Source: an uncultured Victivallaceae bacterium (GTDB lineage Bacteria > Verrucomicrobiota > Lentisphaeria > Victivallales > Victivallaceae). From it: DNA of 64,000 bases. The notes beneath the pieces were generated by a model. The model saw only the letters and a program-made list of their open reading frames with translations. It was not told the origin of the DNA and did not search any database. Location of the stretch: assembly GCA_964402715.1 (NCBI GenBank), contig CAYODJ010000007.1, forward strand, positions 1-64,000, given 5' to 3'. Of the stretch, positions 15,907 through 29,805 are shown one piece after another. The first letter of the stretch is position 1. Every line of letters starts with the position of its first letter. The position numbers and the translations under genes are program-made.

Positions 15907-16081
15907 GAGAGCGCCGTTCCATATCCTCTTTCAGAGGGACTCTGAAGCGGTGGATTTGTTCCCCGCAGGTGCGGGGGTTCGTCATCGCCCGCGTTGTTCC
16001 CAATGCGGCGCGGACTCAATCTTCTCTGCGGAGAGATCGACGCTGAAAAATAACGGACACCCAAACGGGAGACAGGAAATC

Positions 16082-17374
16082 ATGGCAGTCGTCAATGTGG
16101 TGAAATGGGATGCCGCGCCGGGGGTGCTAGCGTGGAAATTTCCGAGTCAGGAGCTTTCGACATGGACGCAGCTGATCGTCTCGGAGTCGCAGGAGGCGAT
16201 TCTGCTGAAGGAGGGCAGAATCGCCGGACCGTTCGGCAGCGGGAGGCATGTGCTGAGCACCGCCAACTATCCGGTGCTGACCAGTGTCCTGAAGCTCGCC
16301 ACCGGCAGCACCCCGTTCACGGCCGAAGTCTGGTTTCTTCAGAAAGCATTCAAACTGGACGTGAAATGGGGAACCAGCGACGCCATGCAGCTCGAAGATC
16401 CGCAGTATCACATCATGCTCCCGGTACGTGCGTTCGGCCAGTACGGCATCGTGGTGGAGGATTCCGCGAAGTTTCTGCTGAAGCTGGTCGGGACACTTCC
16501 CGCTTTCGTGGAGCGGACTCTGGTCGGTTATTTCAGGGGGATCATCGTCACCAGCGTCAAGGACATGATCGCCAAATATCTGGTTGAGAAGCAGGTGTCG
16601 ATCCTTCAAATCTCCGCGCATCTGAACGAAATTTCCTCTTCGCTCGAAGAGCGGATCAGCGGAGAGCTGGCCGAATACGGCATCAGGATCGTCAGCTTCA
16701 ACGTCAACTCCGTCTCCACCGACGACCGCGACCCCGCCGTCCGGAAGCTCAAGGAGGCGCTGGCCGCCAAGGCGGAGATGGACATCATGGGGTACAGCTA
16801 CCAGCAGAAGCGCGCTTTCGACACCATGGAGACGGCGGCCGGCAACAGCGGCGGCGGATCCGGAGTCATGAATGCCGGAATCGGTCTCGGCATGGGCGTC
16901 GGGCTCGGTGCGCCGATGAGCAACATGATGAGCATGATCGGGCGGAATCTGCAACCTGCCTCTCCGGCGGTGCGCTGCCCCGGCTGCGGACGGACGGCAC
17001 CGGCCGACTCGGCGTTCTGTCCGGGGTGCGGCGCGTGCTTCGAACAGCCTGAGCAGCCGCAGGGAGGAGGGATGATCGAGTGCGACAAGTGCGGCACCAG
17101 GAGTCCGAAAGGCACTAAGTTCTGCCCGAACTGCGGAGATGTTTTCTTCTGTTGCCCGGAGTGCGGTTGCGACAATCCGGAGGACGCGGCGCTGTGCCGG
17201 TCATGCGGCAAGCCTCTGCCACTGAAATGTCCCGAATGCGGCGCTCGTCAGCAGGGGAAGGTCAAGTTCTGCGGAACGTGCGGCGCCAAACTGCAGAAGG
17301 ATTGTTCGAACTGCGGAGCGCCGCAGACTTCCGGCGTCAAGTTCTGTCCGGCATGCGGCACCAAACTGAATTAA
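16082..17374 (+). CDS. SPFH/band-7 domain protein with five C-terminal zinc-ribbon repeats (COG4260/YdjI-like)
   Basis: N-terminal SPFH-like domain (VVKWDAAPGVLAWKFP...), then CPGCG...CPGCG, CDKCG...CPNCG, CPECG...CRSCG, CPECG...CGTCG, CSNCG...CPACG. SD GGAGA precedes ATG 16082. Confidence 0.65.
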   Translation: MAVVNVVKWDAAPGVLAWKFPSQELSTWTQLIVSESQEAILLKEGRIAGPFGSGRHVLSTANYPVLTSVLKLATGSTPFTAEVWFLQKAFKLDVKWGTSDAMQLEDPQYHIMLPVRAFGQYGIVVEDSAKFLLKLVGTLPAFVERTLVGYFRGIIVTSVKDMIAKYLVEKQVSILQISAHLNEISSSLEERISGELAEYGIRIVSFNVNSVSTDDRDPAVRKLKEALAAKAEMDIMGYSYQQKRAFDTMETAAGNSGGGSGVMNAGIGLGMGVGLGAPMSNMMSMIGRNLQPASPAVRCPGCGRTAPADSAFCPGCGACFEQPEQPQGGGMIECDKCGTRSPKGTKFCPNCGDVFFCCPECGCDNPEDAALCRSCGKPLPLKCPECGARQQGKVKFCGTCGAKLQKDCSNCGAPQTSGVKFCPACGTKLN

Positions 17375-17384
17375 GGAGACGACC

Positions 17385-18089
17385 ATGTTCAAATCACCGA
17401 GAACCGCCCTGCTGATTCCGGGAGTCCTCTGCATCGGAATCACTCTGTTCGCCGGAACGCTTCTCGTGCGGCCGGAACTGAGGAACACGGCCTACTGGTA
17501 CACGGCAGGTGCGCTGATGGCGGCCGAAGCCATGGTTTTTCTTGCGTTCATGGATGTCGGCGGCGGCCACCGCGACCGCGCCATGCCGTTCCGCATAGGG
17601 AACGTGCTGGTCGCCGTGCTGTACCTCGTTTTCACTTTCGTGATGATCATCCCGTACGCGGCCGAAGCTTCGACGAACGCAATCTGCCTGCTGCAGCTCG
17701 CCGGTCTCTTCACGGCGCTGACGCTGCATGTTCTCTTTCTGCTGGCTCACCGTGCGGTGTCAGATCAGGCACGGAGGGCTGCTGCGGAACGGGCGGATGT
17801 CGTGAACTTCAAAGTGGAGATCGAATCATTCAAGACGGAGCACGAGAATCTGCTACTTAAGACACCGGAGCTTCGGGAGGAGATGCGTGAGCTTTCCGAG
17901 GCGGTGCGTTTCGCGTCCGAAAGCATCCCCGGTTCCGAAACGGCCGATTCGCGGATACACGACGCGATCGGAAGACTGAAGAAATGTGCGCAAACCGATG
18001 ATGCCGACATGAGGGTGCTCTCCGTCATCATTCAGGAACTCCTGGTTCTTTTCCGGAAACGACAGATTCTGATTCGTGGGCTCCGATAG
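17385..18089 (+). CDS. Membrane protein (4 TM + C-terminal coiled-coil), unknown function
   Basis: Hydrophobic N-terminal half, charged helical C-terminal half; starts 11 nt after the upstream gene. Confidence 0.5.
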   Translation: MFKSPRTALLIPGVLCIGITLFAGTLLVRPELRNTAYWYTAGALMAAEAMVFLAFMDVGGGHRDRAMPFRIGNVLVAVLYLVFTFVMIIPYAAEASTNAICLLQLAGLFTALTLHVLFLLAHRAVSDQARRAAAERADVVNFKVEIESFKTEHENLLLKTPELREEMRELSEAVRFASESIPGSETADSRIHDAIGRLKKCAQTDDADMRVLSVIIQELLVLFRKRQILIRGLR

Positions 18090-18139
18090 GAACATCGTCC
18101 CGATTTCATCAGCAAATCAAAAGAGGAGAAAAAGAGAAA

Positions 18140-18484
18140 ATGAATTGTCCCTATTGTGACAATCCACTGCCGCTTCAGGCGGCCCAGTGCCCCAGCTGCG
18201 GCGCAACGGTTCCGCAGACGGCGGGTCAGGCGGGTGCATCTTCGCCGGTGACGCGGCAGAAGTCCCCGTGGCTGGCCTCGGTGCTCTCTCTGTTTCTATT
18301 CGCTGGATGCGGACAGATATACAACAGACAGGTCGGTAAGGGAATTCTCCTGATCATCCTCTGCATCATATGCTGGAGCGAAGATCTCGGTTTCATCCTA
18401 CAGATCGTCGGCGGCATCGACGCCTACAGGATCGCCGCGAAGATCAACGGCGGGCGGCAGGTGGGCAAATGGGAGTGGTTCTAG
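18140..18484 (+). CDS. Zinc-ribbon + TM2-domain membrane protein
   Basis: CPYCDNPLPLQAAQCPSCG ribbon; TM2-like LSLFLFAGCGQIYNRQVGKGILLIIL...GGIDAYRIA. Confidence 0.6.
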   Translation: MNCPYCDNPLPLQAAQCPSCGATVPQTAGQAGASSPVTRQKSPWLASVLSLFLFAGCGQIYNRQVGKGILLIILCIICWSEDLGFILQIVGGIDAYRIAAKINGGRQVGKWEWF

Positions 18485-18620
18485 CTCCCTGCGTCCGGGA
18501 ATAAATGCGCCGGATGAGTCAGCGGGATTATCGGTGCCGGAAACTGGAGCTGATGATCGGGAATAACCTGACAGAAAGTACTTCAATGACTAAAGTCAAG
18601 GGGATATGAAAAAAAGGTAG

Positions 18621-18707
18621 TGCCCCTATTGCAACAATCCACTGCCGCTTCAGGCGATCAAGTTCCCCAGCTGCGGCGGTGCTATAGGAGTTGCTGTATC
18701 GGCTTGA
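18621..18707 (+). pseudogene. Decayed duplicate of the zinc-ribbon N-terminus (fragment)
   Basis: CCCTATTG(C/T)(A/G)ACAATCCACTGCCGCTTCAGGCG matches the start of the 18140 gene nearly exactly. It encodes *CPYCNNPLPLQAIKFPSCGG..., the start codon is replaced by TAG, and a stop follows after 29 codons. Confidence 0.5.
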
Positions 18708-18769
18708 CAGATGAGCTGCAGGTGTTATCCCTGAAGGGCGAAAACCAAACAATAAGGAGTGTTTTGGCG

Positions 18770-19207
18770 ATGTTATGTAAGAATTGCGGGAATCAATTGG
18801 CGGGGGATGTGCGTGTCTGCCCCAAATGCGGCGTTGAGATCGGGGGGGGGGGGGGGACGACCTCCTCCGCAGGAAAATCCCCGTCGCCGTCGACGGATGA
18901 TTCGGGTTCGCTGGTGAGTCGGGTCACCGGTTTGCTAAAGCCGGCTGTCGTCCTGCCCCGGACGGCCGAAATCGAGGCTCTCGCTGCGGGGCCGGCAAAG
19001 AGTCTGAAGGTTTATATATTGCTGGCGCTCTTCCTCGGGAATTTGGGAGCTCATAGTTTCTATGCCGGATACCGTCGGAGAGCACTGACGGCGCTGATGT
19101 GTGCAATTCCTCCATGCTGCTGTCTGCTCACGATTTTCCCGGCAGTGGGGGCGATCCAGGATATGATTCACACAAGATGCGATGCGGCCGGGCGTCCCAT
19201 GATATGA
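18770..19207 (+). CDS. Zinc-ribbon + Gly-rich linker + TM2-domain membrane protein (paralog)
   Basis: MLCKNCGNQLAGDVRVCPKCG ribbon; TM2-like YILLALFLGNLGAHSFYAGYRRRALTALM. SD AAGGAG upstream of ATG 18770. Confidence 0.55.
   Translation: MLCKNCGNQLAGDVRVCPKCGVEIGGGGGTTSSAGKSPSPSTDDSGSLVSRVTGLLKPAVVLPRTAEIEALAAGPAKSLKVYILLALFLGNLGAHSFYAGYRRRALTALMCAIPPCCCLLTIFPAVGAIQDMIHTRCDAAGRPMI
18842..18857. repeat. Homopolymeric poly(G) tract (15-16 nt) inside the coding sequence, encoding a Gly5 run
   Basis: Read directly. The ORF track needs 15 G to keep the frame open, while my count of the printed text gives 16; I could not reconcile this to the single base. Confidence 0.7.
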
Positions 19208-19208
19208 G

Positions 19209-19586
19209 ATGAGGAGAGGCCTTAATTCTGCAACATGCGCGATCGTGGCCGTTCCGGCCATCGTCGCGCTTTATTTGCTGTACAGGGAGGGACCGCAGGG
19301 AGTGTGGTGGTTTCCGCCCTGCATTTTTCACCGCATAACTCACTGGTACTGTCCGGGGTGCGGCTCGACCCGTGCGGTGTACAGGCTGCTGCATGGCGAT
19401 CTTCGCGGATGTCTTACTGCCAATGTGCTGCTGTTTCCCGGTGTTCTGCTGACCTTATGTCTGGCGACAAGAAGAAATGTCACATTGACCGGCAGGGAAT
19501 ATTTCGGCGTCATAGCGCTCTACTCGTTTTACTGGATTGTCCGGAATCTGCCGATTGAGCCTTTTACTTTTCTGATGCCGCGGTAA
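19209..19586 (+). CDS. DUF2752-family small membrane protein
   Basis: HWYCPGCGSTRA motif characteristic of DUF2752, plus 3-4 TM helices. Starts 2 nt after the upstream stop. Confidence 0.55.
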   Translation: MRRGLNSATCAIVAVPAIVALYLLYREGPQGVWWFPPCIFHRITHWYCPGCGSTRAVYRLLHGDLRGCLTANVLLFPGVLLTLCLATRRNVTLTGREYFGVIALYSFYWIVRNLPIEPFTFLMPR

Positions 19587-20215
19587 TCCTGGGTGCTGTT
19601 CCGAATCATACGCAGGGAAGTTGCGCCTGAACAATTCATCCGGCCGCAGGTGTTCGTCATAAGGTTCGGGACGACGGCGGATTCTCCATAACAAGATATT
19701 TTTTCACTGTCATCCCACAGGGTTGAAAAACAGCCTTTTTGCGCCACTACATTGAGCTTACTTCTCTGATTCTTGCAGAACACCATTTCCCGATTTTTTC
19801 TTTCATTGAGTTTGTTCAAGTCGGAGCAAATCCCGGCAGGAAGCCCGTTCCGGAGCTGTGCTTGCACCGACAGGATGGATGCTGTCCCGCAGCATCGCAG
19901 GAAGCTTCCGCCATGTAGATGGCGATGTGCTCATCCCATGGGACGGCTGTGAAGTGAAATAATGCTCAATATCCATATCTTCGTCACAAGGAACTGCCGT
20001 CAGTTCGGACGGCATCAGGGTAAAACCGTCTGCGGCGCCGGATCCGCGGCGCCGCGCACATTCCCACCGCGACGGAGCGACGGGACGGCGGGGCGTTCCT
20101 CCGGAGGCTTCGCGCGGCAGCGCCGTCTCCCGGCCGGACGGATTTCATGATTTTCAGCGGGAAAAATTGCATTTATGCCGCCAAAGGACTATATTCCGTG
20201 TCGGCGGTGCGTCGG

Positions 20216-20289
20216 GGGCGATTAGCTCAGTCGGCTAGAGCGTCACGTTTACACCGTGAATGTCGGCGGTTCGAGTCCGTCATCGCCCA
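20216..20289 (+). tRNA. tRNA-Val (anticodon TAC), no encoded CCA
   Basis: Hand fold: acceptor GGGCGAT/ATCGCCC, anticodon stem TCACG/CGTGA with loop TTTACAC, T-loop TTCGAGT. One of the five T-stem pairs is an A/T mismatch, so this call is less secure than tRNA-Arg. Confidence 0.6.
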
Positions 20290-28792: not shown

Positions 28793-29025
28793 CGCTGGCA
28801 ATCCCACGGATTAAAGATAACGCCGCAATTCGCTTTTTCAATGCTTCGGGCCGCGATTTCGGCCGCGACGGATCGCCGGAATCTTTCGCGCACGGCGGAT
28901 GTGCGCAACTGGACATGCGGCGCCGCGCGGAGTATATTGTCGCATGCACGGGCGCGCGACGCGGCGATCTCCTGCGGAGTGCGCACGGGGGGACGGCGGA
29001 TTCGGACGCGTTCCGTTTCCCGGGG

Positions 29026-29805
29026 ATGAACGGAGGAGAAGCTCTGTTGGAGCAGTTCGGCGTCAGGTTTGCGGGCGAAAGCAACCGCGGTCTGGTGATG
29101 GAGCGCAACGAAGATAATTTCTTCTGGGTGGCGCGCCGCGGCGACCGCGCCGCGCTGGCGGCGGTGGCGGACGGCGTCGGCGGCTGCAGGGAGGGGGACG
29201 TGGCGAGCTTCGTCTGCTGCCGCAGAATGCTGGGCGCATGGCAGAAACTGGATACCGGACGTCTGACTCCCGACGGCGCCGCGGATTTTCTGCGGCGCGT
29301 GCTCGACGACGTCAACGCGGAGTTCTGCGAACACAACTGCGGCGTGCGGGACGGGACGTCGCTGGCCACCACCGTCGCGGCGGCGGTTTTCTTCTCCGAG
29401 GACGTGGTGATCGCGCATGCCGGAGACAGCAGGGTCTACCGGTATCTTCCCGGAGAGGGACTGGCGCAGCTGACGGAGGATCACTCTCTGCAGGCCGTGA
29501 TGGACAGGGGGGGGCCGGACGCGCCGCTGCCCGCCGGAGCTTCCGGCAACTGGCTCTACCGCTCCGTCGGCTCGCGGCGCAGGCTGCGGCTGGATTCGGT
29601 GAAGCTGCCGAGGGCTCCGCTGAGCCGTTATCTGCTGTGCTCGGACGGGATATCGCGCAGTCTGGACGCCGGCGAGATCTCCGGCGCGCTGCGCGATTCC
29701 GACGATCCGGCCGCCGCCGTGAACAGGCTGATGCGGGCGGCGCTGCTCGCCGGCGGCCGCGACAACATCACGCTGATCTGCGCGTTTCCCGGCCGCGGGC
29801 GCTGA
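29026..29805 (+). CDS. PP2C-family Ser/Thr protein phosphatase
   Basis: FAGESNRGLVMERNEDNF...AVADGVGG...HAGDSRVY...CSDG PP2C motifs. Divergent from pyrR. Confidence 0.7.
   Translation: MNGGEALLEQFGVRFAGESNRGLVMERNEDNFFWVARRGDRAALAAVADGVGGCREGDVASFVCCRRMLGAWQKLDTGRLTPDGAADFLRRVLDDVNAEFCEHNCGVRDGTSLATTVAAAVFFSEDVVIAHAGDSRVYRYLPGEGLAQLTEDHSLQAVMDRGGPDAPLPAGASGNWLYRSVGSRRRLRLDSVKLPRAPLSRYLLCSDGISRSLDAGEISGALRDSDDPAAAVNRLMRAALLAGGRDNITLICAFPGRGR

Follow-up and report, generated by a model that had tools for sequence, protein, structure and literature searches.

High slippage rates are established for poly-G/C tracts of at least 8 repeats in Campylobacter, Neisseria and Haemophilus, and contingency loci of a similar kind are found in Neisseria, Haemophilus and Helicobacter. 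The genes that are switched in this way in other bacteria usually encode surface or envelope components under phage or host pressure. In a study of C. jejuni NCTC11168, 29 polyG/C loci of 7 or more repeats are described, with ON/OFF switching (PMC4965091).

Here we describe a run of 15 G (G15) within the gene of a small zinc-ribbon/TM2 membrane protein. The run exceeds the length of about 7-8 or more G/C residues that marks a hypermutable repeat, and it lies within the CDS, where a change of one unit would alter expression. The gene is followed on the same strand by a DUF2752 gene whose start abuts its stop, and the pair forms a two-gene module. Whether the tract is in effect a frameshift switch, that is, as a slipping repeat that turns the gene ON and OFF in a candidate contingency locus, we regard as evenly balanced. 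Such a mechanism is well established; the novelty lies in the host gene and the organism. To our knowledge, TM2 and DUF2752 proteins are widespread membrane proteins without a known function in bacteria. The animal TM2D literature, which concerns Notch signalling, contains nothing on bacteria.

The G15 tract, its host gene and the neighbouring genes

The window, meaning the whole 64-kb stretch of DNA that was analysed, is an ordinary chromosomal region with 63% GC and two tRNA genes, from an LPS-bearing bacterium (LptG, MurF, PyrC, TruA, WbaP). The homopolymer consists of exactly 15 G. The sequence-only reading had counted 16 G and had let the tract end at 18857; the count was one too many and the end coordinate was off by one, since 18857 is an A. 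The codons around the tract are GTT GAG ATC, five GGG, and then ACG ACC (E I GGGGG T T). They agree with the frame of 15 G that the open reading frame had implied, and with the proposed translation as GGGGG. The domain positions likewise place the tract between the zinc ribbon and the TM2 domain, as had been proposed (Table 1).

Runs of G become rare with length in the 64 kb: there are 178 runs of length 4, 49 of 5, 7 of 6, none of 7 and one of 8, followed only by the single run of 15. The next-longest run of either G or C is also 8. G15 appeared in 0 of 100 dinucleotide-preserving shuffles. The same shuffles predict about one G9 word per window, and none is present outside the tract; long G/C runs are thus otherwise avoided in this genome. 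GGG is a minority glycine codon here (only about 16% in a crude ORF set, with GGC preferred at 46%), so that even a Gly5 peptide would seldom be expected to use GGG five times in a row. The second-longest G/C run, G8 at 29507-29514, is part of an Arg-Gly-Gly stretch in the gene of a PP2C-type Ser/Thr phosphatase (ORF 28915-29805; NF033484, E 8.7e-43).

The host gene encodes a protein of 145 aa, and its homologs align from M1. A 195-aa ORF that starts at GTG 18620 was rejected as the real gene, since the homologs begin at ATG 18770 and an AAGGAG motif lies upstream. The ribbon scores 24.0 bits against PF13240 (Zn_Ribbon_1), just below the 25-bit cut-off, and the CxxC-x10-CxxC motif is present. 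Its four cysteines are invariant in six homologs, and metal binding is predicted. The gathering threshold of PF05154 is passed.

Table 1. Positions of the features discussed in the text, in window coordinates
Feature	Position	Strand	Basis or remark
Upstream 114-aa gene, ribbon and TM2-like hairpin	18140-18484	+	architecture; phrog_10292; without homopolymer
Decayed duplicate of the 5' end of the upstream gene, 80 nt	18599-18678	+	80% identical to 18124-18203
AAGGAG Shine-Dalgarno-like motif, 10 nt upstream of the ATG	18754-18759	+	sequence; putative function
Zinc-ribbon/TM2 membrane protein CDS, 145 aa	18770-19207	+	ATG start, TGA stop at 19205-19207; phrog_10292 match
Zinc ribbon, aa 3-21 (CKNC-x10-CPKC)	18776-18832	+	PF13240 and four Cys
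G15 homopolymer	18842-18856	+ (sense)	five GGG codons, Gly25-Gly29
TGA stop for a 3n+1 tract	18898-18900	+	rebuilt CDS; 43 aa at G16
TGA stop for a 3n+2 tract (G14, G17)	18915-18917	+	rebuilt CDS; 48-49 aa (48 at G14); ORF 18759-18917
CT dinucleotide deleted in the G9 strain (L002)	18953-18954	+	deletion frameshifts the gene, giving the 92-aa P0007
TM2 domain, aa 76-123, two-helix membrane hairpin	18995-19138	+	PF05154, 35.9 bits (cut-off 27.9)
DUF2752 membrane-protein gene	19209-19586	+	PF10825, 56.8 bits; ATG 1 nt past the stop of the TM2 gene

The coding effect of the tract length was read from CDSs that were rebuilt in silico with 7 to 19 G, by following the frame and the stops. Lengths divisible by 3 give the full protein of 143-146 aa. 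Lengths of 3n+1 give a ribbon-only product that ends in DDLLRRKIPVAVDG before the stop, and lengths of 3n+2 give one that ends in RPPPQENPRRRRRMIRVRW before the stop. The products of both out-of-frame classes are about 40-50 aa long and lack the TM2 domain. The earlier proposal that a one-base change would remove this domain is thus borne out, as the rebuilt CDSs stop before TM2 in both shifted frames.

The DUF2752 gene starts 1 nt past the TM2 stop, and the two genes are therefore probably co-transcribed and translationally coupled. They are the last two of five consecutive same-strand genes at 15950-19586, all of which encode membrane-associated or zinc-ribbon proteins: an SPFH/Band-7 protein with several ribbons (15950-17374), a 234-aa multi-pass protein, the 114-aa protein, the 145-aa protein and the DUF2752 protein. 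These five genes may form one functional cluster. None of them matched the PADLOC defence-system models or NCBIfam, and their matches in PHROGs were only to families of unknown function.

The upstream 114-aa gene had been described as a paralog without such a tract. The absence of a homopolymer is upheld, and the two genes share the architecture and the phrog_10292 match. The similarity of the 114-aa protein to the 145-aa protein is marginal in BLASTP (E 0.008, in the ribbon only), and it scores 15.6 bits for TM2 (PF05154), below the threshold of 27.9; 'paralog' is therefore a loose label. Between the two genes lies a decayed duplicate that covers the ribosome-binding site and the 5' end of the 114-aa gene. 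It carries an in-frame TAG and a Cys-to-Phe change, and a run of A7 lies inside it (18609-18615). This copy points to duplication and decay within the cluster in recent times.

Tract length in close strains and in homologs

Four volcano rabbit (Romerolagus diazi) samples provided the faecal metagenomes SRR14209493-96, for which a HiSeq 4000 with 2x151 reads was used (PMC8378336). The exact 145-aa protein is found on a Logan contig of SRR14209493 (L001), which is the same as the window over 6 kb and has G15. A contig of SRR14209494 (L002) has G9 at the site of G15. Beyond the tract, this contig has two substitutions and the 2-bp CT deletion of Table 1, which lies within a conserved LLKPA..PRTAEIE motif (L002:203-204 region) and frameshifts the gene independently of the tract. 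A second contig of the same sample (L084) has 4 substitutions in 1229 nt compared with the window. The substitutions in both contigs mark a distinct strain in this sample rather than noise. Over about 2.2 kb, the G9 strain and the window are about 99.7% identical, with a 6-nt change in the tract against 6 substitutions and one other indel elsewhere. The repeat number thus differs between strains that are about 99.7% identical, as judged from two alleles, of which G9 is read from an assembly of low coverage whose contigs are only 1.0-1.2 kb long. Since the G9 strain has a 2-bp frameshift of its own, it may be that the gene is not regulated and is instead dispensable or in decay.

In SRR14209495, the contig (L083) ends at the tract; from 18857 on, it matches the window at 100% identity. 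Its first 24 positions (L083:1-24) are C on the sense strand, where G is expected. Being on the wrong strand, this run cannot be an allele of the tract; the reads probably failed once copying of the G15 template began. Two-colour chemistry does not explain the failure, as the HiSeq 4000 is a four-colour instrument. Exact-protein look-ups of the upstream neighbours, on the left side of the tract, returned no record for this sample. The DUF2752 gene is intact and identical in all three samples. L001, L002 and L083 all end at exactly window position 19766, which falls in a non-coding stretch of about 630 nt (19587-20215) just upstream of a tRNA-Val gene (20216-20289); this break may be a strain-variable junction or a repeat.

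A comparison of tract length in related strains had been proposed as a check on the switch. It gave G9 against G15, together with the break of the third sample's contig at the tract, and is in favour of an unstable tract. The alleles seen are G15 in the window and L001 and G9 in L002, both multiples of three, with no OFF-by-tract allele among them. Protein fragments of OFF length were absent from a search of 5.8 billion proteins, in which such short ORFs are rarely called.

The TM2 domain, a ribbon and a conserved LLKPA..PPRT.(D/E)IE.LAAGP motif are common to five homologs with 48-60% identity. The window protein keeps all 57 residues that do not vary among the homologs. The homologs carry one or two ribbons and a linker of mixed sequence, and these linkers differ in both length and sequence. 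A second ribbon of about 28 aa is present in four of the five (P0002-P0005) and is missing from the window protein just before the tract. A Gly run at the position of the tract is found in none of the five, and at the DNA level the two loci that were fetched (P0005 and P0006) have no homopolymer of at least 8 within the gene. The tract is therefore not simply a conserved Gly linker.

The length difference between strains and the absence in homologs together indicate that the tract is recent and changeable in length. Judged from these sequence comparisons, it is a recent lineage-specific acquisition in an indel-tolerant linker. According to the sequence-only reading, homologs with a Gly linker free of a homopolymer would speak against a switch. 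By this measure, the homologs here speak against an ancient conserved switch; a recent one is not contradicted.

The TM2-DUF2752 pair recurs in both homolog loci (L089/L090 and L091), where the two genes overlap by 4 nt. Ribbon-TM2 and DUF2752 genes occur there in multiple copies (L087-L090 for P0005, L091 for P0006), in one arrangement as a tandem of TM2, DUF2752 and TM2 and elsewhere as two convergent TM2-DUF2752 pairs. This suggests that the module is prone to duplication.

Wider scans gave more distant matches. In a scan of one genome per species with the homolog alignment, the matches listed were distant relatives only, with at most 35% full-length identity. When the cluster proteins were compared by tblastn with these listed loci, no synteny was found, except for a weak DUF2752 match in an Opitutia MAG, which adjoins the alignment-scan match. 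In the JGI metagenomes, the exact flank pattern with a variable gap had 0 matches, and a protein-based scan yielded just two ribbon matches, both distant; these metagenomes do not contain the species. Near the distant homologs, G/C runs of at least 8 occur twice in 80 loci (585 kb). One of the two, a C11 in a Fibrobacter MAG (L006:3900-3960), follows a run of A11 and is directly followed by A9, the cluster lying about 45-95 nt upstream of the start codon of a distant ribbon/TM2 homolog. The association of this C11, 54 nt upstream of the start codon, with the homolog is not significant, given that 11% of the sequence counted as 'near'.

Possible switching and alternative explanations

If the tract acts as a switch, slipped-strand mispairing during replication would alter its length. 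Multiples of three, such as the observed 15 and 9, would leave the protein complete, with 5 or 3 Gly in the linker. Such in-frame changes should be tolerated, because the linker varies in length and sequence among the homologs. Other lengths would bring in a stop 14-19 codons past the tract and leave a ribbon-only peptide of about 40-50 aa. OFF lengths would probably also lower the expression of the coupled downstream DUF2752 gene, as its start abuts the TM2 stop and termination about 300 nt upstream would probably cut its expression. The population would then be a stochastic and reversible mix of ON and OFF cells, i.e., translational phase variation of the TM2/DUF2752 module. In this scheme, we infer the slippage rate, the existence of OFF cells, the DUF2752 polarity and the selective value. 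The data are equally compatible with a Gly linker that varies in length and is merely tolerated, and with a locus that is drifting towards a pseudogene.

That the tract is unstable and yet only a length-variable poly-Gly linker, an accident in a tolerant disordered region in which frameshifts are purged and which has no regulatory or bet-hedging role, is possible but doubtful. Both observed alleles are multiples of three, although two alleles would both be in frame by chance about once in nine, which makes this weak evidence. The wide variation of the homolog linkers, including the loss of the whole 28-aa second ribbon just before the tract, is consistent with such an accident. So is the lack of any other long G/C tract in the 64 kb, which gives no sign of a wider phase-variable set. 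Against it, a neutral linker is expected to mix GGN codons, with GGC preferred here, and G15 must yield frequent frameshifts anyway, so that OFF cells would exist. Decay of the locus, in which the tract would be one lesion among several and the small ribbon-membrane genes a recently duplicated cluster that the cell can do without, is improbable. The decayed 80-nt duplicate with its in-frame stop, the 2-bp frameshift of the G9 strain within the conserved motif and the loss of a second ribbon that P0002-P0005 keep all fit decay. An ORF of 145 aa that is intact across the tract in both the window and L001, the retention of the 57 invariant residues, a TM2 score above the threshold and a DUF2752 partner that is intact and identical in all three samples argue against it.

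It is very unlikely that the tract itself, or its length and the 15-versus-9 difference, arose from Illumina homopolymer errors during sequencing or assembly. The impossible 24-C run in SRR14209495 means that the chemistry clearly fails at this site. Moreover, one set of reads probably underlies both the window and L001, which are then not independent; the coverage of the G9 contig is low, and Illumina length calls are unreliable at G15. Dark-cycle or stall errors, however, run to the end of the read and yield no k-mers with unique sequence on both sides, whereas two assemblies (k=31 contigs) span the tract with both flanks in one frame. Homology continues on either side of the junction, ordinary Illumina stutter falls far short of a 6-nt contraction, and the SNPs elsewhere mark the G9 sample as a distinct strain. 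The two-colour dark-cycle artefact in particular is ruled out by the HiSeq 4000 platform, which is four-colour and not prone to poly-G, and by the unique in-frame flanks. An artefact is thus unlikely for the existence of the tract and is a real concern for its exact length.

We consider it highly improbable that structure rather than frame is what matters, namely that G15 folds into a three-tetrad G-quadruplex (G4) in DNA or mRNA and 9 G do not, so that the allele modulates transcription or translation. G15 is the shortest run for a three-tetrad G4 with 1-nt loops, and a motif of four G3 is reached exactly at n=15. ViennaRNA predicts a three-layer G4 at n of at least 15 (MFE -64.1 vs -44.8 kcal/mol without G4), a weaker two-layer form at n=11-14 and none for G9. 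Stalling of the polymerase on G-rich template DNA would be in keeping with the assembly failure in L083, and effects of G4s on ordinary Illumina reads are described in two studies (PMC8516911, PMC6486626). A G4 might thus explain the sequencing failure at the tract, and biological effects of one here are speculative. The structure is a model prediction only, none of the homologs has a G-rich element at this site, nothing ties G4s to this gene family, and frameshifting accounts for the same data more simply.

A bolder form of the switch, in which G15 would be a selected and reversible switch of the TM2/DUF2752 module that perhaps acts through a sense-strand G4 besides the frame, seems to us unlikely to hold. 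The role of a G4 alongside the frame is suggested by 15 being the minimum for a three-tetrad G4, which the allele of 9 cannot form. If G15 is a selected switch, it would be the first means of linking the TM2 and DUF2752 families of bacteria to a phenotype and an instance of homopolymer phase variation outside classical pathogens. Confirmed switching would mark the ribbon/TM2 and DUF2752 proteins as a module that the bacterium gains from toggling, which is a testable functional lead. It would also mean that metagenomic data can directly reveal homopolymer contingency loci in gut commensals that are uncultured and high in GC. Short-read assemblies break or become corrupted at the tract, as in L083, so that neither the length annotated for it nor the label 'intact' for the gene should be relied on without a check of the reads.

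Comparison with known systems

The order of ribbon, linker and TM2, with DUF2752 (PF10825) directly downstream, is that of TM2 proteins (PF05154) with an N-terminal ribbon. The Gly run and the homopolymer in its linker set the window gene apart from these relatives. The tract also resembles in-frame repeat polymorphisms of disordered linkers, in that two whole Gly codons separate the alleles, in a linker of low conservation. Such linker repeats normally have mixed codons, whereas the tract here is a pure G15, in which in-frame changes are no more likely than frameshifts.

As in the C. jejuni loci, an in-ORF G:C homopolymer lies above the instability threshold, a one-unit change truncates the product, and the tract length varies between close strains. 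The 15 residues here exceed the typical tract length in C. jejuni. Switching has been seen in C. jejuni, whereas here only the in-frame lengths 15 and 9 are read from assemblies. The host is an uncultured, LPS-bearing bacterium of 63% GC from volcano-rabbit faeces rather than a low-GC or host-adapted pathogen, and the tract is the only one in 64 kb. Unlike the C. jejuni loci, the gene encodes a small zinc-ribbon/TM2 protein and not a glycosyltransferase, a restriction-modification enzyme or an adhesin.
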